Of a DNA stretch of 64,000 nucleotides, positions 32,300-42,100 are shown one piece after another. The DNA is taken from positions 357 through 64,356 of the forward strand of contig CAKTYZ010000017.1 of the NCBI GenBank assembly GCA_934635225.1, in the 5' to 3' direction. A program made the translations under genes and the position numbers. How positions within the stretch are numbered: position 1 is the first letter of the stretch; each line of letters begins with the position of its first letter. Origin of the DNA: an uncultured Kiritimatiellota bacterium (lineage in GTDB: Bacteria; Verrucomicrobiota; Kiritimatiellia; RFP12; UBA1067). The notes below the pieces were generated by a model. It made no database searches, had not been told where the DNA came from, and saw only the letters and a list, made by a program, of their open reading frames with translations.

Positions 32300-35200
32300 A
32301 TGAAGGATTCTGGAGAGAAATTGCGTGGGGGAATGCGCGGCGCTTACCCCGTTTGCATCGGTTTGCTGGCATTGGTGGTCGTATGTTCCGCCGTGTTCTC
32401 GTGCTGGTTGTACGGGCGGGTGCGTTCGTATGAGAAGGCGCATGGCGTGGAGATTCTTTCCGCTGCGCAAGAGGATGTTGGGAAGACGGGCGGCGAAGAG
32501 CAGAAATACGATCCGCCGAAGCCACTGCCAGAGACGGTGCGCGATGCGTCCGTAGGGGTGAAGACGCGGACGAATGCGGTGGAAAAGGCGGAAATGAAGG
32601 TCGCGTCCGTCAATTACGACGGGGATACGCGGCTTGAGGTCACGCTGACGGAGCGTCCGAACATGGACGGCATTCGACAGTACGTGGAGGTCGGGCCGAT
32701 GGACGAGGGGGTTGCCGGAATCTCCTACAAGGCGGACTACAACTACGGGAAGCGCGTCTACGAGCCGAAACTCATCATCACGGGCGATTTCGCGAACGGG
32801 ACGAACGTCACGCTGCGCCTGCGCAAGGGACTCTCGCTCTACGGGAAGTCGTCCTTGGCGGAGGGTTCCCTGGCGGAGGACTACACCTATACCTTTCACC
32901 GACGGGATCTTAAGCCGTCCGTGGCATTCGCCCATGCGGGACGCTACCTGCCGCCGAGCGGCGGACGGACGCTCGCCATCGAGAGCGTGAACGAGCCGAG
33001 CGTCCGGGCGGAAATCCGCCGCGTGGAACCGGCGAACATCGTCCAGTTGCTGGCGCGAGAGGAGAATAAATATGCGCGTTATTTCAACTTTTATTACTGC
33101 GACAATGGAGATGCTAGGGATACGGCGGAACTTGCCGGAGAGGTGACGGAAAGTTTTCATAAGTGCCAGAATACGCTCAACCGAAAGGAAATCTGGCAGA
33201 TGCCGGTCGGCGCGGCGGATGGCGGTCCGAGCAACGGCGTGTACTTGGTGAGCATCTGCCACGGGCCCACATACCGACTCGTCTGTGTCTCCGACCTCGG
33301 GCTGTCCGTGCGACAGAGTGGAGACGATTTGGGCGTGTGGGTGACTTCGCTGACGACGGGACGGCCCATGCCGGGAGCGAAGATTCGGGTGTTTTCCGCC
33401 GCGAATATCGAAGTGATGACCGGGACGAGCAATGCGGACGGCTGGTGCGTTCCAACGCGCATCCAAAAGGGTGCTCCGTTCGCCGTCGTGGTGACGACAC
33501 CGTCGGACGATGACCGCACGTTCATGGCCCTCACGGATCGCATGGAGGTTGACGAAACCTACACGGACGGTGCGCGCGCAGACTACGTTGCGAAGGAGGC
33601 GTGTACGGGGTTCGCGTGGACAGAGCGCGGCATCTATCGGCACGACGAGAAGATCTTCTACCATCTTCTTCTGAGGACGGGCGAGATGAAGGCTCCGAAG
33701 CCGTTCCCCGTGAACCTGCGACTTGTCACCCCGAAAGGTGATGTTTTCATCAGGAAAACGCTCGTTTCGGACGAATCGGGGGCGATTGCGTACAATGGCT
33801 TCGCCGTGCCGGCGGACCAGCCGAGCGGGAAGTGGCAGATTCTCGCCGTTCTGCCGGGCGAGAAGGAGGTCGTGCTCGCCGAACGCGAAATCAAGGTCGA
33901 GGAGTTCGCACCACCGCAGGTGCGCGTCACGGTTGCCGCAAAGGAGGAGGATGTGAATCCCACGAACTTCGCCTTCACCGTCTCCGCCGAACACCTCTTC
34001 GGGGGCGCGGCGACCGCGCTTCGGTGCGAGGGTGCGGTCGTCTTCGAGGACGTGCCGTTCGCCCCGGCGGCGTGGAAGGGCTACCAGTTCGGGAACGAGG
34101 ACCTCGGACTGAAGCCGAGCTTCCGGCGGCTTGGCGCGAAAGTTCTCGATGCGGAGGGGCGGATGGCGTTTGTCGCGCCGCTCTGGAAGGATTCGGGGCT
34201 GCCGAAGGCGATGGTTCGCACCACGGCGCAGGGGACGGTGTTCGAGGATGGGGGACGACCGGCGACGGCCCGCGCGACGGTTCTTCAGCACTATTATCCT
34301 TATTATATAGGCTCGACGCTTGCGAGTTGGGTGCGCAAGCCCGAACAGGGAATGCCACGCCTTCTGCTCGCCTGCGTGAACTCGGACGGGACGCGCGTTG
34401 CCGAGGCGAAGAGCCTGACCGTCCGGCTTGAGCGCATTGATTCCGTCTACTCCTACAAGCAGGGGGACAACGGCGTGAACACGTGGAACAGCGAGCGCAT
34501 CCGCGTGCCGGCATCGGACGATTGGACGGTCACCACGCGGACGGATGCGGATACGGAGGTCATCCTGCCGGTTGCCGAGAGTGGGGACTACATGGTCACG
34601 GTGTTCGATGTCGAGACAGGTGTCTCCTACGCCCGCGCATTCTATCTGAGCACATGGGGCGACGAGGCCATCCGTGCGCCGCTCGCCAACCCGACGGAAG
34701 TGACGATTCGCGCCGACAAGTCCGTCTACCGTGTGGGCGAAGCGCCGCGCCTCATCGTGAAGTCGCCGTTCGCCGGATTCGCGATGCTCTCCGTTCAGCG
34801 CGAGCGCGAACGCTATACTCAGATTCTCGAACTCACGAACGCGACGAGCGAAGTGGTGCTTCGTCCCGTCAGCCGTGAGGACGCGCCGAACCTCGACGTC
34901 TACCTCTCGGTCGTGCAGAGCGTGGCGGAGAACTCGAAGCACCTCGCCGCGCGGGCGCACGGTCAGACGACGGTGAAGGTGATGCCGAAGGAATACGAGA
35001 TTCCCGTCAAGGCCAGTGCGACGGTTGAAGCGGCGAAGACCGTGCGGGTCCAGGTTCAGGCACCGGGTGCGGAGGCCGTGTGGGTGACGGTCGTGGATGA
35101 GGGAATCAACCTCCTGACGGGCGAACCGACTCCCGATCCGGTCGCGGCGTTTGCAGAGGAGCGCGGTGCGGACCATCCGCTCTACGACATCTACGGCAGG

Positions 35201-37111
35201 ATTCTGCCCGTGGACGGTGCGGCCCTCAAGGCCAACGGAATCAAGACGGGTGGCGGATTCGGTGCCGAGATGCTGGGGCGCGTCAGCCCCGTCGGGACGC
35301 GGCGGTTCAAGCCGCTCGCCCTCCAGCGGCAGGCGGAACGCGGTGCGGACGGCATGTGGCGGACGACATTCAAGTTGCCGCCGTTCGTCGGCGAGGTGCG
35401 CGTGACGGCGGTCGTCCACTCGACGACGGCGACGGGCGCGGCATCCGTGCAGGCGAAGGTTGCGCCGGCGATCGTGATGATGCCAGATGCGCCGCGTTTT
35501 GCCGCACCGAACGACTTGTTCGAGGTGGCGTTGCCCCTCCACAACAGGAGCGGCGAGGCGGCGACGATTGACTACGAGATTCTGGCGGATGGGGCGATTG
35601 TCGCGTCCGACAAGACCCTGCACCTTGCCAAGGACGCGGCGACGAATATCTTCGTACGAGTCCGCGCACCGTCCGAGCCGGGCGAGATGCGCCTCGTCTA
35701 CCGCGTCAGCGGATGCGGCGAGCCGCAGGAGCAGACAATCGACCTCCCCGTGCGTCCGGCCGTCGCGTGGCGCGAGGTGGCGGGCGTGGCGCTGAAGGGC
35801 GAATCGCCGAAATGTGAGACTTCCGCCTTCGTCAAGTATGTCGAACGCGAGTTCGATTCGCCGCTTGGGGAGTACGAGGCGGCGTTGCGGTGGCTCGCCG
35901 AATACCGCCACGGCTGTCTGGAGCAGACGTGTTCGCGCGTCTTCCCTCTCGTCGCGGCGGGCGGCATCATGAACGGCATCGTCTCGAATGCGACGGACGC
36001 GGTGGCGAGGGGCGTTCGGCGCGTGGAGTCGATGGTGCGCGAGAACGACTTCACGATGTGGCCCGACTGCAACTATGCGCCGTGGAACCGCGAGGTCTCC
36101 CTCTACGCGGCACACTTCCTGTTCGCGGCGGAGAAAGCGGGCGTCACGCTGAACCCGATTGCACGGAAGCAGGTCGTCAAGTTCCTGACTCAAAAGTGGC
36201 AGTATTTGACCCTCGGCGATGAATCGACCTATGCGGCGTATGTGCTCGCGCTGTCGGGCGCGGCGAATCGGGATCGGCTCTTCAGTCTCTACGACAAAAG
36301 TGCCACGCTTTCGGCTCTCGCCCGTGCACGGCTCGCGCTTGCCTTCGTTGAAGTCAACGACCTCACGCGGGCGCGGACGCTCCTTGCCGAGTCCTATGAA
36401 CCGCAGTCCGTCAAGGAGGCAGCGTTCCAGCTGCTGGCACGGGTTGCGGTGAACCCGAAGGACGAGCGGAATGCTCCGCTTCTCGTTTGGCTGAACGAGT
36501 CGCGCGACCGCGAAAGATTCAGCTGGGGGACGACCGAGGAAAACGCCCACGCGCTTCTCGCAATCGGCGCGTACTATCAGGCGAATCCGCCGAAGAAGGG
36601 TGAGAAGTTCGTTGCGTGGCGGAAGCTGACACTGTCCAAGGTTGAGGACGTGAAGGCCGAATCGTCGGGACTCTTCCTCGCGCGGCGGTTCCTGACGGCG
36701 GAAGGCAAGCCCGCCGACCTTGCGAACCTCACCTGCGGCGATCTCCTCTATTCTGAGCTCTCAATCACCTCCGCCGTCAGCCGCGTTGTCAACGACCTCG
36801 TGATTGAGGACCTTTTCGCCGGCGGCTTCGAGCCGGTGCACAATGCGCTCGAGTGGAAGGCAAAGGAGGGCGACGCGGATGGGCGACAGCCTGTCGTCGA
36901 CTGGGTGATGCGCACGGACGCACGGGACGATCGTATGCTGGTCTTTTCCAAGAAGTTCACACTGGGGGCGGGCGATGTCGCACGAGTCTCGTATCCGGTT
37001 CGGGTGGTTTCGGCGGGCGAGTTCGTCCTGCCGGGCGCGAGCGTGGAGGGGATGTACAATCCTGAGCTGCGCTCTTGCCTTGCTCCTGGCCGCATCGTGG
37101 TTCACCATTGA
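32300..37111 (+). CDS. Bacterial alpha-2-macroglobulin with a thioester
   Basis: The protein is 1603 aa with an N-terminal signal/anchor. The thioester motif GCLEQ (EYRHGCLEQT) is present. A Shine-Dalgarno sequence AAAGGAG precedes the start. Confidence 0.85.
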   Translation: MKDSGEKLRGGMRGAYPVCIGLLALVVVCSAVFSCWLYGRVRSYEKAHGVEILSAAQEDVGKTGGEEQKYDPPKPLPETVRDASVGVKTRTNAVEKAEMKVASVNYDGDTRLEVTLTERPNMDGIRQYVEVGPMDEGVAGISYKADYNYGKRVYEPKLIITGDFANGTNVTLRLRKGLSLYGKSSLAEGSLAEDYTYTFHRRDLKPSVAFAHAGRYLPPSGGRTLAIESVNEPSVRAEIRRVEPANIVQLLAREENKYARYFNFYYCDNGDARDTAELAGEVTESFHKCQNTLNRKEIWQMPVGAADGGPSNGVYLVSICHGPTYRLVCVSDLGLSVRQSGDDLGVWVTSLTTGRPMPGAKIRVFSAANIEVMTGTSNADGWCVPTRIQKGAPFAVVVTTPSDDDRTFMALTDRMEVDETYTDGARADYVAKEACTGFAWTERGIYRHDEKIFYHLLLRTGEMKAPKPFPVNLRLVTPKGDVFIRKTLVSDESGAIAYNGFAVPADQPSGKWQILAVLPGEKEVVLAEREIKVEEFAPPQVRVTVAAKEEDVNPTNFAFTVSAEHLFGGAATALRCEGAVVFEDVPFAPAAWKGYQFGNEDLGLKPSFRRLGAKVLDAEGRMAFVAPLWKDSGLPKAMVRTTAQGTVFEDGGRPATARATVLQHYYPYYIGSTLASWVRKPEQGMPRLLLACVNSDGTRVAEAKSLTVRLERIDSVYSYKQGDNGVNTWNSERIRVPASDDWTVTTRTDADTEVILPVAESGDYMVTVFDVETGVSYARAFYLSTWGDEAIRAPLANPTEVTIRADKSVYRVGEAPRLIVKSPFAGFAMLSVQRERERYTQILELTNATSEVVLRPVSREDAPNLDVYLSVVQSVAENSKHLAARAHGQTTVKVMPKEYEIPVKASATVEAAKTVRVQVQAPGAEAVWVTVVDEGINLLTGEPTPDPVAAFAEERGADHPLYDIYGRILPVDGAALKANGIKTGGGFGAEMLGRVSPVGTRRFKPLALQRQAERGADGMWRTTFKLPPFVGEVRVTAVVHSTTATGAASVQAKVAPAIVMMPDAPRFAAPNDLFEVALPLHNRSGEAATIDYEILADGAIVASDKTLHLAKDAATNIFVRVRAPSEPGEMRLVYRVSGCGEPQEQTIDLPVRPAVAWREVAGVALKGESPKCETSAFVKYVEREFDSPLGEYEAALRWLAEYRHGCLEQTCSRVFPLVAAGGIMNGIVSNATDAVARGVRRVESMVRENDFTMWPDCNYAPWNREVSLYAAHFLFAAEKAGVTLNPIARKQVVKFLTQKWQYLTLGDESTYAAYVLALSGAANRDRLFSLYDKSATLSALARARLALAFVEVNDLTRARTLLAESYEPQSVKEAAFQLLARVAVNPKDERNAPLLVWLNESRDRERFSWGTTEENAHALLAIGAYYQANPPKKGEKFVAWRKLTLSKVEDVKAESSGLFLARRFLTAEGKPADLANLTCGDLLYSELSITSAVSRVVNDLVIEDLFAGGFEPVHNALEWKAKEGDADGRQPVVDWVMRTDARDDRMLVFSKKFTLGAGDVARVSYPVRVVSAGEFVLPGASVEGMYNPELRSCLAPGRIVVHH

Positions 37112-39254
37112 CTGGTCGCCCGAAGGGGCGGACGAGTATCCGGGCGGCATCGTCCTACGCGATGACGCGGGGAATGTGCTCCGCGTGTCGCTGGGCGAGG
37201 GCGATGTCGACTGCCGCCCTTACTACGCGGCGGATCCGAACGACTGGATCGTGAAGGCCCTCGTGGCGGTGGAAGACGGGTCGTTTTGGACGCATCGCGG
37301 TGTGCGTCCGCTCTCGATCCTGCGGGCGACCGCGCAGAACCTCTTTTACCGTCGCCGCATTTCGGGGGCCTCGACCCTCACGATGCAGACGGTGCGGCTG
37401 ATTCGCCCCCATCCGAAGACTCTCTGGTGGAAGTGGAAAGAGACGATTCTGGCCCTCAAGATGGAGAGAAAGCGCGACAAACTGTGGATTCTGTCGCAAT
37501 ATCTGAACCGCACTCCCTACGGATCGAACTTCGTCGGCATCGAGGCGGCGGCGCAGGGCTGGTTCGGGAAGGGCGCGAAGGATCTCGGACTCGGCGAGGC
37601 GGCCTTGCTCGCGGGGATGGTGCAGGCCCCCTCGCGGTTTCGTCCCGACCGTGGCTACGAAAAGGCGATGAAGCGTCGCGACTACGTGCTGAACCGTATG
37701 TTGAAACTGGGAATGGTCACCGAGGGGCAGTGCGCGGCGGCGCGGACGGTTCGCCCCGTCGTCCGCCGTGCGCCGCGTCCGTTCAAGGCCCCCCATTTCT
37801 GCGACTGGGTGATGATGAGGATCGGGAAGGATCGCAACGCGCAGCGCAGGAGCGGCGATTTCGTGACGACGCTCAATGCGGACGTCCAGCGGCTCGCGGA
37901 AAATGCGGTCGCGCAGGCGGCGGAGAAGGGCGGCTATTCGGTTGCGGCGGTTGTGATGGGGGTCAGGACGGGTGAGGTGAAAGCCCTCGCCTGTAGCGGC
38001 GACTACTTCAACGCGGCGGGGGGGCAGGTGAATACCGCTGTTTCGTCGCGTCCGGCTGGTTCGACGCTCAAGCCGTTCCTCACAGCCCTCGCCTTCGACC
38101 GGGGACTCTCCACGCCCGATGAGCGGGTTGCCGATGTGCCTCGCGCCTACCGGGGGTATCGTCCGGCGAACTTCGATGCGGCGCACCGGGGACTCGTCAC
38201 GGTTCGGGATGCGCTCGTCCTTTCCCTGAACATTCCGTTCGTGCAGATGCTGAACCGCGTCGGCGTTTCGGACTTCGGGGCGATGCTGAGGGAACTCGGC
38301 TTTGAGCAGTTGGGGAAGTCGGACGAACCGTTCGGTCTTGGCATGGCCATCGGCAACGCCGAAGTCTCGCTCGTCGAACTCGTCTCGGCCTACGCCACGC
38401 TTGCACGGGGCGGAATTGCGCGTCCCCTTGCGGTCCTTCGTCCGGAAGACGGAGAAGGCGAGGATGCGGCGGGTTTCCGTGTGTTTTCGGAAGGCAGTTC
38501 CTACCTCGTTTCGGATGTCCTTTCGGGTAACGAACGCGCGAGCGCGGCATTCGGGCATATCGCCGACGTGCCCGTGTCGCGCTTCGCGTGGAAGACGGGC
38601 ACCTCAAGTGCCTATCGGGATGCGTGGACGGTTGCGTGGAATCCGGACTATGTCATCGGCGTGTGGTGCGGACACAAGGTCGGCGGCTTCGGCGACAAGA
38701 CGCTTGTCGGGGCGAAGGCCGCCGCACCCGTCGCTCTCGGTCTCGCGCGGTCGCTCTATCCGCAGAACGACGGGCCGTGGTTCGTCGCACCGCCGGAAGT
38801 CCACGAGCGGGAGGTCTGTCCGCTGTCGGGTCTGCCGCGCAGCGCGAACTGTCCGCAGGGGGAAGTCGGGCGCTATCTTGAGGGACGGAGCGATGCGCGA
38901 CCATGCGCGGTTCATGTTCGGGACGCGGAAGGGCGCGTCGTCGAGCGGTTGGATGCCGCACTTGCGGCATTTTCGGGAGATCTCGACGCGGCGGAACGGC
39001 TTCAGATTTCAAAGCCGGAGAACGATTCCGCATTTTGCCGTGTAAAGGGGATGGCGCAGCAGAAGGTCATCTGCCAGGTCCTCGGCAACCCGAAAGAAGC
39101 GCGGCTTTGGTGGATGCAGAATGGCGTAATGGTTGGGAACAGCGTCGATTCCGAGCCGTTTGCCGTCGAAATGGCGGTTGGCACAAACGAGGTGACGTGC
39201 GTCTCTGCGGAGGGCGTTTCCGCATCCGTCCGCTTCTTCGTGCGGGAGGAATAA
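36975..39254 (+). CDS. pbpC: Penicillin-binding protein 1C (transglycosylase-transpeptidase)
   Basis: The GT51 motifs EDGSFWTHRGV and GASTLTMQ are present, with a transpeptidase domain. If the ATG at 36975 is used, the gene overlaps the 3' end of the A2M gene by 137 nt. Confidence 0.8.
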   Translation: MSHESRIRFGWFRRASSSCRARAWRGCTILSCALALLLAASWFTIDWSPEGADEYPGGIVLRDDAGNVLRVSLGEGDVDCRPYYAADPNDWIVKALVAVEDGSFWTHRGVRPLSILRATAQNLFYRRRISGASTLTMQTVRLIRPHPKTLWWKWKETILALKMERKRDKLWILSQYLNRTPYGSNFVGIEAAAQGWFGKGAKDLGLGEAALLAGMVQAPSRFRPDRGYEKAMKRRDYVLNRMLKLGMVTEGQCAAARTVRPVVRRAPRPFKAPHFCDWVMMRIGKDRNAQRRSGDFVTTLNADVQRLAENAVAQAAEKGGYSVAAVVMGVRTGEVKALACSGDYFNAAGGQVNTAVSSRPAGSTLKPFLTALAFDRGLSTPDERVADVPRAYRGYRPANFDAAHRGLVTVRDALVLSLNIPFVQMLNRVGVSDFGAMLRELGFEQLGKSDEPFGLGMAIGNAEVSLVELVSAYATLARGGIARPLAVLRPEDGEGEDAAGFRVFSEGSSYLVSDVLSGNERASAAFGHIADVPVSRFAWKTGTSSAYRDAWTVAWNPDYVIGVWCGHKVGGFGDKTLVGAKAAAPVALGLARSLYPQNDGPWFVAPPEVHEREVCPLSGLPRSANCPQGEVGRYLEGRSDARPCAVHVRDAEGRVVERLDAALAAFSGDLDAAERLQISKPENDSAFCRVKGMAQQKVICQVLGNPKEARLWWMQNGVMVGNSVDSEPFAVEMAVGTNEVTCVSAEGVSASVRFFVREE

Positions 39255-39584
39255 GTATTCAGAAGTGCATGTCCGTACGAACCGTTGGCGTCTCAAGTAC
39301 TCGGAATTGCGGACGGATTTGAGCGCAAAATCGCTTGATGGGAGTGGAAAGACGTGTAAAATCGTGCATTATTTTGAGGTTCGTGCCAATATGTGCACTT
39401 GTCGGGATTCGCGCCATTTCGCCACGCTTTGAGGTAAACGGTTTTGGTCAGAGGGTAAGGCGGGCGCGGCGGATTGCCTGCGGTGCTCGGCACGGAGAAG
39501 TAAGACACGCCGCGTCCTGGCTGTCTTACAAGTCCTAAGCGTCCTACCCGACGCGGATTGATTCCCCACGCTCAGCCGTTTTTT

Positions 39585-39794
39585 TGGCATGCTTCCTTCT
39601 GCTCATGGCGTCGGTCTTTCGTCTGATGGTTTGTGTTGCAGTTCCCATCATACACGATTTCCTCGACGCCGTGGGCGTTTTCCTTCGCCGCCGGCGGCCA
39701 CCCCCATGGGGGTGGCGTGGCGTGCTTTTCTTCTTCTTCGATCCCCATGGCCTTCCTCTCTTATTTGCTGACCCGTTAGATATTACCATTTTCG
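39585..39794. repeat. Direct repeat, copy B (about 210 bp, with an internal insertion of about 60 bp), downstream of pbpC
   Basis: See copy A. On the - strand it encodes MVISNGSANKRGRPWGSKKKK... Confidence 0.8.
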
Positions 39795-39865
39795 CGTTGG
39801 GATTTTTCACTCGCCCCCCTTGCGCGGCGTCAGAAAAAAGAGTATACTACACACCGTTTTCGATT

Positions 39866-39942
39866 GGGGCTGTAGCTCAACTGGATAGAGCATCAGACTA
39901 CGAATCTGAGGGTTGTGGGTTCGACTCCCGCCAGCCCCGCCA
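39866..39942 (+). tRNA. tRNA-Arg (anticodon ACG)
   Basis: A cloverleaf was folded by hand. The anticodon loop is ctACGaa and a 3' CCA is present. Confidence 0.85.
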
Positions 39943-39958
39943 ATTGAAAGCGCCAGAT

Positions 39959-40035
<77 letters not shown>

Positions 40036-40066
40036 AAAAGATCTGGTTCTGGCTTCAAGCCCTTGT

Positions 40067-40143
40067 CGGACCGTAGCGCAGCCTGGTAGCGCGTTTGCTT
40101 GGGGTGCAAAAGGTCACGAGTTCAAATCTCGTCGGTCCGACCA
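40067..40143 (+). tRNA. tRNA-Pro (anticodon GGG)
   Basis: A cloverleaf was folded by hand. The anticodon loop is ttGGGgt and a 3' CCA is present. Confidence 0.85.
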
Positions 40144-40447
40144 ATGAGTGTGGTGATACGCTCGCCTTACGACCAATGTTTTCGTGGGTGTGGTCGAAGG
40201 TCTTTTCGTGATGAGACATGTAGGCATCTGAATGTCGCGTGGTAACTCAACATGACAATAGCGAATCAAGGACAAATCGTCGAGCTGTAAAATAGAGGTA
40301 AACAATCTGAATCGCTGATATTTCGCGCGCTATGCGAATCGCGTCACATTGATTTCTGGATCACAAGAATGATATAATGCAAACGCCATTTACGGTATGT
40401 TCAGAAAAGGTGTTTTTCTTTTTCTCACATGAAGAGGAGGTGATTTT

Positions 40448-40876
40448 ATGAAGAAACTGATGTTTGTCGCCAGTGTGGTATTTGTTGCAGGATCGCTCTT
40501 TGCGGTGGCCACCAAGCGGACATATCGTGACGCGCAGGGTCGCAATATGGGTTCTGCGTCGATGGATTCGTCTGGCCGGGCAACTTATCGGGATGCCCAA
40601 GGCCGAAATTTAGGGTCGTCCACTATGATTGGTAGCAGGACGACCTATCGTGATTCATTGGGACGCAACCAAGGATCCGCGACAACAGATTCGTCCGGGA
40701 ACATGACCTATCGAGATTCTCAGGGGAGAATGATGGGTACGGCTCGTATCGATTCGACCGGCATGGTCACGTATCGAGACGCGCAGGGGCGTTTGCAGGG
40801 CACGGCCATGACGGATTCGTCTGGCCGGATGGTCTATCGCGATACCCGGGGGCGTTTGCAAGGCACGAAGAAGTGA
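40448..40876 (+). CDS. Secreted protein made of eight tandem repeats of about 16 aa, with consensus TYRD(A/S)QGR.(L/M)G(S/T)A..DSSGR
   Basis: A signal peptide is followed by the eight repeats. An AGGAGG Shine-Dalgarno sequence precedes the start. The GC content is about 55%, against about 63% for the flanking genes. Confidence 0.6.
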   Translation: MKKLMFVASVVFVAGSLFAVATKRTYRDAQGRNMGSASMDSSGRATYRDAQGRNLGSSTMIGSRTTYRDSLGRNQGSATTDSSGNMTYRDSQGRMMGTARIDSTGMVTYRDAQGRLQGTAMTDSSGRMVYRDTRGRLQGTKK

Positions 40877-41029
40877 CCTTTGACACGGCATTCGAGAAGC
40901 TGGCGCGTTTGAAGATCCGCAGCGGGTTCAGGTTGTCGGACGCGGATTGTAATTATATCGCCGGAGCGTCATCACGCTGGGAGCAAGCCGCATGGCCGAT
41001 GAAATGTGGTATAATCTCCGTCCACAGAC

Positions 41030-42100
41030 ATGAATATCCTTGGAATAGAAACGAGTTGTGACGAAACGGCGGCAGCCGTTGTGCGCGACGGGCGAGAAGT
41101 CCTCTCGAATGTCGTCTACACGCAGATTCCGCTTCATCAGCCTTATGGCGGCGTTGTGCCCGAGATTGCCTCTCGTGCGCACATCGAGAAGATTACGCAA
41201 GTCGTAGGTGACGCGATGAAGGGGCTGTCTGTTGATGCGGTCGCCGTGACTTACGGACCGGGGCTCTCGCCTGCGCTTATTGTCGGGCTTAACGCGGCGA
41301 AGGGGCTGGCGAAGGCCTTGGGCGTGCCGCTTCTCGGCATCAATCATTTGGAAGGGCATCTGCATTCGCCGTTCCTTTGGGATGTGCCCGAGGATGCCAC
41401 GCACGCGAGTCCGGACCCGCGCGAACTGGGTCCGGCGCTTGGACTCGTGCTTTCGGGTGGCAACACGATGTGGATAGACATGCCGGCCTACGGTCGTTAT
41501 GAGGTCATCGGTGAGACGCTGGACGATGCGGCGGGCGAGGCGTTCGACAAGGCCGCGAAGCTCCTTGGGTTGGGTTATCCAGGCGGACTCAAGATTGATC
41601 GGATGTCGCAGGCGTGGCATGAGCACGCGTCGGCAGATCAGTCGTACATTCCTTTCCCGAAGGGACGTCCGCGCGACGGCGTGACCGCATTGGCGGGGCT
41701 GCCTGCCGAACTGTGCGTCTCGTTCTCAGGGTTGAAGACGGCGCTTTTGCGCTATGTCCAGCAGCATCCCGAAGTCCGGATGGAGCCTGGCCTTTCGCAT
41801 GTTGTTGCGTCGTATCAAGAGGCAATTGTCCAGGCGGTTGCGGACAGGACACGCGCGGCCCTTCGCCGCAAGCGCTACAATGCATTCGTCTTCGGCGGCG
41901 GCGTCTCGCTCAATTCCCGTGTTCGCATGGCTCTGACGGACCTCTGCCGGGAAGCGGGCGTGCCGTTGCTGATGGCAAAGCCGAAATACACGGGCGACAA
42001 TGGCGCAATGATTGCCGGGCTGGCGTACTATCGGCGCAACCACGAGGCGGATGCGATGTCGCTGGACGTAGGCCCGTGTCTGCAGGTCGGAGGCGACTGA
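41030..42100 (+). CDS. tsaD: tRNA N6-adenosine threonylcarbamoyltransferase
   Basis: The N-terminus ILGIETSCDETAAAV and the segment HIEKI...GPGL match Kae1/TsaD. Confidence 0.85.
   Translation: MNILGIETSCDETAAAVVRDGREVLSNVVYTQIPLHQPYGGVVPEIASRAHIEKITQVVGDAMKGLSVDAVAVTYGPGLSPALIVGLNAAKGLAKALGVPLLGINHLEGHLHSPFLWDVPEDATHASPDPRELGPALGLVLSGGNTMWIDMPAYGRYEVIGETLDDAAGEAFDKAAKLLGLGYPGGLKIDRMSQAWHEHASADQSYIPFPKGRPRDGVTALAGLPAELCVSFSGLKTALLRYVQQHPEVRMEPGLSHVVASYQEAIVQAVADRTRAALRRKRYNAFVFGGGVSLNSRVRMALTDLCREAGVPLLMAKPKYTGDNGAMIAGLAYYRRNHEADAMSLDVGPCLQVGGD

Follow-up and report, generated by a model that had tools for sequence, protein, structure and literature searches.

The locus just downstream of a cluster of three tRNA genes, in a 64,000-nucleotide stretch of DNA from an uncultured Kiritimatiellota bacterium (the whole of this stretch being referred to below as the window), raises the question of what kind of protein is encoded by a short open reading frame (ORF) that follows an AT-rich segment, and of whether the gene is native to its host. 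The original prediction read the ORF as a secreted protein of eight near-identical tandem repeats of 16 residues, apparently belonging to no described family, perhaps acquired horizontally and perhaps variable in copy number.

The ORF is a real gene (Table 1), and the description of its surroundings was accurate: the stretch following tRNA-Pro, put at some 300 bp and about 45% GC, measures 304 bp and 42.4% GC, and the ORF, put at about 55% GC, has 55.7%, compared with 60.9% for the whole window. The Shine-Dalgarno sequence is graded strong, and 62 of 72 family loci have an SD-like site. A putative sigma-70-like promoter is recognised in the leader by its match to the consensus; across the family, promoters of this type with at least 9 of 12 matches occur upstream of 12.5% of the genes and in 6% of control windows, a mild enrichment that gives no family-wide sign of high expression. 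A search downstream of the ORF found no intrinsic terminator, and an Rfam scan of positions 39000-41200 returned the three tRNAs and no further family. The genes upstream of the tRNAs encode an alpha-2-macroglobulin-like protein and PBP1C, those downstream of the repeat ORF are tsaD, trkA and aroA, and the window contains no second copy of the repeat gene.

Table 1. Features of the repeat gene and its upstream region (positions in the window)
Feature	Positions	Strand	Basis
tRNA genes Arg-acg, Met-cat and Pro-ggg	39866-40143		
tRNA-Pro(ggg)	40067-40143		
AT-rich intergenic leader between tRNA-Pro and ORF, holding putative promoter and 5' UTR	40144-40447	+	
Putative sigma-70-like promoter, TTGATT, 18 nt spacer, TATAAT, with TG before the -10 hexamer	40349-40378	+	consensus match, 10/12 positions
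Shine-Dalgarno sequence AGGAGGTG, 5 nt before ATG	40435-40442	+	
Whole ORF, 142 codons plus stop	40448-40876	+	ORF list; homologues in database searches
Predicted Sec-type signal peptide, residues 1-21 (MKK, hydrophobic core, AVA then T22), without lipobox Cys	40448-40510	+	sequence rules
Repeat unit 1, TYRDAQGRNMGSASMDSSGRA, 21 aa	40520-40582	+	
Repeat unit 2, TYRDAQGRNLGSSTMIGSRT, 20 aa, one-residue deletion in the second turn	40583-40642	+	
Repeat unit 3, TYRDSLGRNQGSATTDSSGNM, 21 aa	40643-40705	+	
Repeat unit 4, TYRDSQGRMMGTARIDSTGMV, 21 aa	40706-40768	+	
Repeat unit 5, TYRDAQGRLQGTAMTDSSGRM, 21 aa	40769-40831	+	
Unit 6, truncated, basic C-terminal cap, VYRDTRGRLQGTKK, 14 aa	40832-40873	+	

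The number and length of the repeats had to be revised. Instead of eight units of 16 residues, the protein contains five full units of 21 residues (20 in the second) and a 14-residue end unit, giving six YRD..GR motifs, at residues 26, 47, 67, 88, 109 and 130. The unit motif is T-Y-R-D-x-x-G-R-x-x-G-(S/T)-x-x-x-D-x-x-G-x-x, so that the consensus first given, TYRD(A/S)QGR.(L/M)G(S/T)A..DSSGR, was essentially right. Amino acid self-identity reaches 0.485 at a lag of 21, compared with a background of 0.096 at a lag of 16 and a highest value of 0.25 in 2000 shuffles, and in the DNA the self-identity is 0.53 at a lag of 63 nt and 0.27, the background value, at the 48 nt originally proposed. The 21-residue (63-nt) periodicity is far beyond chance. 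Nor are the units near-identical: their 14-residue cores share 43-79% of amino acids (mean 62%) and about 59% of nucleotides, and residues that are identical between units are mostly specified by different codons (e.g., 9 of 11 and 8 of 10). The longest exact DNA repeat inside the gene is 16 nt. Because the DNA copies are so diverged, Tandem Repeats Finder reports no array in positions 39000-42000, and the periodicity is thus demonstrated by autocorrelation. The divergence of the copies and their differing codons therefore indicate old duplications, with selection maintaining the protein sequence.

The reading of the product as a secreted repeat protein holds, export being predicted by rule. 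The N-terminus (MKKLMFVASVVFVAGSLFAVA followed by TKR) is laid out like a Sec signal peptide in its n-, h- and c-regions, with MKK as the positive n-region, a hydrophobic core of 17 residues, and small residues at -3 and -1 of a predicted signal peptidase I site (AVA before T). All 41 aligned family members likewise combine a positive n-region with a 12-residue window whose hydropathy is 1.96 or higher, and in each of them the mature start is preceded by a small residue. No lipobox ([LVI][ASTVI][GAS]C) is present in the window protein, which has no Cys, and the 41 aligned members have no consistent lipobox, Cys occurring in some relatives only. In larger relatives the same repeat module is placed after transmembrane anchors, an arrangement consistent with an extracytoplasmic location. 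From these features we infer that the window protein is exported by the Sec pathway and that it would reside finally in the periplasm or at the cell surface.

The structure predicted by AlphaFold2 from a 33-sequence alignment has a mean pLDDT of 82.7 (rising to about 90 within the repeats and falling under 50 in the signal peptide alone, which is modelled as disordered or helical) and a pTM of 0.71. In the model each unit supplies two of the 12 strands, with D-x-x-G-R and D-x-x-G-x turns between strands, and the predicted fold is an elongated 12-strand antiparallel beta-meander to which each unit contributes one beta-hairpin. Foldseek finds only local or architectural matches to known structures (TM-scores of 0.2-0.5), among them engineered single-layer sheets of OspA, blades of the BamB propeller, alternansucrase repeats, RhsA (24% identity) and MORN proteins in BFVD; the protein is thereby grouped with extended hairpin sheets and not with barrels. 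Of the two folds initially suggested, a beta-solenoid or a repeat beta-hairpin, the hairpin form is the one that AlphaFold2 returns, and beta-solenoids are absent from the top Foldseek matches.

The mature window protein would have about 121 residues and a mass of about 13.1 kDa, with a pI of 11.0, a GRAVY of -1.16 and a net charge of +11; it is rich in R, G, T, S and D, has one Tyr per unit and contains no catalytic motifs. A basic character is common to the 41 orthologues (mature net charge +7 to +17, pI about 10.5), none of which departs from the R, D, G and R of the motif. The sheet begins with conserved basic residues (TK/TKR) and ends with others (KK/KR), and nearly every family member finishes in a basic tail (KK, KR, RR, KTVK and similar). 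The basic ends may serve as caps, in a form of negative design against edge-to-edge aggregation.

The view that the repeat lacks a curated description is borne out by database searches, in which matches were either below threshold or confined to part of a model: NCBIfam, PADLOC and PHROGs yield nothing above threshold, and the window protein has no convincing match in Pfam or NCBIfam. A full-text literature search for the repeat motif likewise found no match, and nothing relevant on small YD-repeat proteins. Source names of the homologues are 'hypothetical protein' or blank, apart from two automatic JGI names, one of which is reproduced by no family search and the other of which describes an unrelated N-terminal domain.

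The nearest comparisons are with two kinds of hairpin repeat. The RHS/YD repeats of Rhs toxins, TcB/TcC and teneurins resemble the family in having a period of about 21 residues, one hairpin per unit and a core of the form aromatic-x-D-x-x-G-R-(L/I/V), followed by G-(R/K)-x-T-T into the next unit. Here the core reads Y-R-D-x-x-G-R-x, its Tyr lying one position away from that of the YD repeats and its post-GR strand being two residues longer. The window protein moreover has six units and not dozens, and accordingly no closed shell, plug, autoproteolytic C-terminal domain or toxin; it stands alone and, by the rules applied above, is exported by Sec. The Pfam model of these repeats, PF05593 (RHS_repeat, gathering cut-off 22 bits), does not match the window protein even at E ≤ 10; it is passed over the whole 38-position model, at 30-36 bits, by 13 of 80 short relatives and 1 of 41 six-unit relatives (14 of 121 in all), those that pass being the ones with a 'TTDSSGR' linker. 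PF03527 (RHS protein) is not reported for the window protein and is found weakly (E 0.002) in 2 of the 41 relatives. An hhalign comparison of the family with E. coli RhsA gives an E-value of 0.36, and one with a profile of the RhsA YD units gives P 0.008 over 17 columns; neither is significant, and the alignment pairs D..GR..-..G at the cost of a two-residue gap.

The second kind comprises the YG/CW_binding_1-type repeats of glucansucrases, choline-binding proteins and clostridial toxins, which are also hairpins of about 20 residues with an aromatic-x-D-x-x-G core. These repeats bind carbohydrate or teichoic-acid ligands, and this property is the basis of the functional analogy considered below. 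In the PDB the best sequence match of the window protein is to the glucan-binding repeats of alternansucrase (domain V; E 1.9e-5 by phmmer and 2e-4 by profile), the protein also matched by Foldseek, and RhsA appears in the same search at E 7.7. The Pfam CW_binding models, with their GW/YY-F-D-x-x-G consensus, however, do not match the window protein, the invariant Arg and the Thr-rich strands of the family are not found in YG repeats, and the family protein belongs to a Gram-negative host and stands alone without a catalytic domain. By sequence comparison the family thus appears to belong among the aromatic-D-x-x-G hairpin repeats of about 20 residues, lying between the YD and YG types and being a demonstrable member of neither. 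The architecture and this family assignment are held with high confidence.

The likeness to other elongated sheets is of a different order. The single-layer sheet of OspA and the MORN repeats share with the family model an extended, solvent-exposed array of antiparallel hairpins, and the top Foldseek matches are OspA variants in the PDB (E 3e-4) and MORN proteins in BFVD; there is nevertheless no sequence relationship, the TM-scores are just 0.2-0.3, and, unlike the family protein, MORN proteins reside in the cytoplasm and OspA is a lipoprotein whose ends are globular domains. A separate set of profile matches is unlikely to denote family membership. PF08789 (PBCV-specific basic adaptor domain) scores 24.7 bits, above its whole-protein cut-off of 20.4 bits, with its best stretch covering positions 4-17 (14 of 38), and in a second scan no single stretch passes; DUF6725, DUF2790 and DUF903/YgdI-YgdR give partial matches of the same kind, each to 10-17 positions of models of 38-83 positions. 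What these models have in common with the family is a short basic hairpin motif, Y-x-D/N-x-x-G-K/R, and the scores are sums of partial matches to this common hairpin.

The family is large and nearly confined to a narrow group of hosts. A word-index search returned 203 homologues, and an exhaustive profile search over clusters at 50% identity returned 1984 at E ≤ 1e-3, 641 at E ≤ 1e-10 and 25 at E ≤ 1e-30. In GTDB contigs, with one genome per species, there are 134 family loci, and the best 80 of these 134 are in Kiritimatiellia MAGs from rumen, faeces and gut, some of them under the older labels Verrucomicrobia or Lentisphaerae. Nearly all loci thus come from gut or rumen Kiritimatiellia, to which the family is almost restricted. 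A few family loci are found in bins named after unrelated taxa, which are probably contaminated. The closest relative, at 73% identity, is encoded in a Kiritimatiellia MAG (locus L028) and shares with two other close relatives (L015 and L036) and the window protein a second unit of 20 residues; a gut or rumen member of the Kiritimatiellia is therefore a very probable source of the window.

Copy number across the family is strongly centred on six. Exactly six YRD..GR motifs and a length of 140-150 aa are found in 68 of 88 parsed ORFs; the remainder have 3, 4, 5, 7 or 9 motifs, several of them at contig ends or frameshifted, and some genomes carry six-unit and nine-unit paralogues together. Units are more alike within a protein (0.68-0.81) than at the same position across species (0.64-0.73), which indicates that they have been homogenised while the count was still held at six. 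A majority of the forms in metagenome protein catalogues (136 of 255) have 3 units and a length of 78-85 aa; these may be true paralogues or in part products of assembly collapse. The exact 142-aa protein of the window is present on at least 23 metagenome contigs from different samples; four of these contigs were compared and are 100% identical in DNA, and they therefore yield no information on polymorphism or dN/dS.

The family gene is solitary, without operon partners. All-against-all clustering of neighbours across 80 family loci revealed no recurrent neighbour, and homologues of the window neighbours (33-48 kb) are near the family gene in none of the 80 other loci; in one species it is flanked by tsf and rpmH. 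Its genomic position shifts between species, and it tends to adjoin tRNA genes.

The suggestion of horizontal acquisition is that a 0.7-kb low-GC segment was inserted beside tRNA-Pro from another organism. The gene has a GC3 of 0.60, lower than that of any of 28 long ORFs in the window (mean 0.75, minimum 0.635) and than the 0.78 expected from its amino acid composition, synonymous codons being used nearly evenly; it directly follows the tRNA cluster, about six independent family loci have a tRNA gene no more than 600 bp away, the position of the gene differs in every species, and the closest tsaD relatives (76-87% aa identity) have no such gene upstream of tsaD. The last comparison loses its force, however, because the four tsaD relatives found by a metagenome TsaD scan share tsaD alone, and without any flanking synteny they cannot show insertion. 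Between the tRNAs and tsaD there is no integrase, nor are there mobile-element genes, and a repeat of tRNA-Pro of 12 nt or longer occurs nowhere in the window outside the tRNA cluster; thus, of the marks of a tRNA-linked island (an integrase or other mobility gene, a repeat of the tRNA 3' end), none was found, and low GC3 alone fits. The segment is moreover a single gene, and its 304-bp AT-rich stretch is an ordinary promoter and leader, as at other family loci, where the 250 bp upstream average 52.5% GC and the loci 59.7%. Family-wide, the GC3 of the gene tracks that of its flanks (mean difference -0.006), deviations of -0.11 to -0.16 being present in about 8 of 55 loci; the family is limited to the host's own class, and there is no near-identical donor, the best relative being only as close as the 73% noted above. 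Low GC3 is the sole sign of foreignness, and recent acquisition from another organism is considered improbable.

Taken as a whole, the observations are best explained if the protein is abundant and non-enzymatic and has a binding or structural function in the envelope of gut and rumen Kiritimatiellia, a reading that is given about an even chance of being correct. On this explanation the small pre-protein would be exported by the Sec pathway and cleaved by signal peptidase I, and the mature, polycationic beta-ribbon of six hairpins would reside in the periplasm or at the cell surface, where its arrays of Arg, Tyr and Thr might attach to anionic glycans or envelope polymers in the way that carbohydrate is bound by the YG/cell-wall-binding and YD hairpin repeats. 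The ligand-binding part is put forward tentatively, as possible and not as probable, on the basis of the analogy with YG/CW-binding and YD repeats, the charge of the protein and the absence of partner genes. Since the alignment with RhsA is not significant, the carbohydrate-binding analogy draws on weak homology, and the fixed copy number could equally reflect a role as ruler or scaffold instead of one in ligand binding. A bolder version would make the family a new class of envelope protein, a lineage-specific, polycationic single-layer beta-ribbon with a fixed length of six hairpins, exported in quantity, that organises or measures the envelope or captures anionic (e.g., sulfated) host or dietary glycans, its length being held by selection despite the homogenisation of its units; this version is considered unlikely.

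A different fate of the exported protein would be self-assembly, with units stacking into extracellular fibres as a matrix or functional-amyloid subunit in the manner of curli CsgA. CsgA has a signal peptide and five strand-turn-strand repeats of about 19-23 residues, and the window protein resembles it in architecture and size; it is likewise a solitary, repeat-only protein with predicted export, and its best Foldseek matches in the PDB are the OspA sheets described as a 'peptide self-assembly mimic'. The Curlin and Fap models of Pfam, however, match neither the window protein nor its relatives, genes for the secretion apparatus or nucleator are near none of the 80 loci, and the net charge of +7 to +17 disfavours stacking. 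The conserved basic residues at both sheet edges would, as a negative design, act in the same direction, and the model is a hairpin meander whose top structural matches include no beta-solenoids. Amyloid-like assembly is therefore regarded as having little probability.

The constancy of length is central to another alternative, in which a rigid beta-ribbon, selected for its 12-strand length, would act as a spacer or tether of fixed length, serving as a ruler or cross-link in the periplasm comparable to Lpp in enterobacteria. Retention of six copies in 68 of the 88 ORFs, and of this count in the face of unit homogenisation, speaks for such a function, and the C-terminus is nearly always Lys or Arg. 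Against a tether, there is no lipobox and hence no lipid anchor, many members end in Arg only, which makes a cross-link through an epsilon-amino group impossible, and forms with 3, 5, 7 and 9 units exist. A spacer of this kind appears quite unlikely.

A further alternative, closer to the original prediction, is that of a contingency locus, at which tandem repeats expand and contract by slippage or recombination and thereby generate variable surface proteins. The range of 3 to 9 units across the family and the exact internal DNA repeats of 50-106 nt in the family gene of some species count in its favour. In the window gene itself the longest exact internal repeat is 16 nt, Tandem Repeats Finder gives an empty result and the DNA copies are saturated with synonymous differences; the four compared contigs, of at least 23 with the exact protein, have identical DNA, and six is by far the most frequent count in genome bins and across species, and the 3-unit catalogue forms may in part stem from assembly collapse. 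Variation in copy number through tandem DNA is not supported for this gene, and a contingency locus is very improbable.

In fungi, multi-core precursors carry repeats behind a signal peptide, with Arg or Lys close to where one unit meets the next; the family protein resembles them in layout and could in principle be cut at basic residues into secreted or modified peptides of about 20 residues; this is scarcely credible, as a modifying enzyme, protease or transporter is never a conserved neighbour, the units are confidently predicted to hydrogen-bond within one sheet, and the invariant D, G and R are turn-forming residues, not core-peptide-like.

The locus would gain more than modest interest if a part in the envelope or in glycan capture were demonstrated. 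To our knowledge, almost nothing has been established about the envelope and surface proteins of the Kiritimatiellia. The window gene represents a large family that is unnamed in databases, comprising at least 641 clusters at 50% identity and 134 species-representative loci, in organisms that are common yet almost uncultured in herbivore and human gut communities (PMC7807809). The family would be a minimal, stand-alone form of hairpin repeats known from the giant Rhs/Tc toxins and from Gram-positive wall-binding domains, and, with its unit number conserved at six, it provides an uncomplicated case in which selection on repeat-protein length can be tested.

In about six independent species, genes of this repeat family have a tRNA gene less than 600 bp away; in one further species the family gene is flanked by tsf and rpmH. 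Such tRNA-proximal placement is far more frequent than the ~1% expected by chance, a figure that is our own rough estimate; none of the other neighbours of family genes is conserved. The family genes may be placed together with genes of high expression, or may use insertion sites close to tRNA genes.

In the window, pbpC and the tRNA cluster are separated by 610 bp, and this gap holds a 58-aa ORF for which no Pfam match was found. The alpha-2-macroglobulin-like gene and PBP1C form a known pairing. Downstream (41030 onward) two t6A genes, tsaD and one for a Sua5/YrdC-Maf fusion, are only a few genes apart.

Features around the window gene and placement of family genes (L, family loci in GTDB species genomes)
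Feature	Position or locus	Strand	Remark
Alpha-2-macroglobulin-like gene, then PBP1C	about 32300-39254		
58-aa ORF	39572-39748	-	contains PPPWGWPP; called as gene in metagenome annotation
Terminator-like hairpin	39609-39628	+	in pbpC-tRNA gap
Terminator-like hairpin	39704-39720	+	in pbpC-tRNA gap
Placement near tRNA or tsf/rpmH	window 40067-40448; L015, L028, L052/L062, L054, L065		

The comparison of three- and six-unit forms covers homologous proteins P0011-P0120 and P0121-P0252 and loci L029, L168 and L169. Six-unit forms predominate in GTDB genomes (68/88), whereas in metagenome protein catalogues three-unit forms of 78-85 aa make up the majority (136/255); the latter may be genuine paralogues or may result from collapse in short-read assembly. 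The pairs L012/L051, L021/L061 and L016/L045 each lie within a single genome and combine a gene of six units with a paralogue of nine (206 aa); the L045 copy carries a frameshift.

The same repeat module also occurs in larger relatives (proteins P0132, P0137, P0029 and P0004), fused behind a multi-pass membrane domain (591 aa), a response-regulator receiver domain with a transmembrane segment, a zinc-ribbon with a transmembrane segment, or an unrelated 130-aa N-terminal domain. At loci L005-L007, from one Kiritimatiellae MAG lineage, the family gene reads as 226 aa, and its product (P0010) has an unrelated Cys-rich C-terminal extension beyond the usual ...GSKRTR end, at which its sister sequence P0007 terminates; this points to a lost stop codon or to an artefact of sequencing or annotation. 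Kiritimatiellia-type loci (L015, L035, L062, L063, L068) were found in bins named Barnesiella intestinihominis, Anaerovoracaceae, Lachnospira hominis, Limosilactobacillus gorillae and Clostridia, and probably represent contamination of those MAG bins.

Synonymous codons are used near-evenly in the window gene (40448-40876), where Thr, for example, is encoded by ACC (5), ACA (3), ACT (2) and ACG (6); the ACG share of Thr codons in the window's long ORFs is 72%. Because of this evenness GC3 of the gene falls to 0.60 and the DNA copies of its repeat units stay dissimilar. The even codon use may stem from a foreign origin, from usage linked to expression, or from selection that disfavours recombination between the units.
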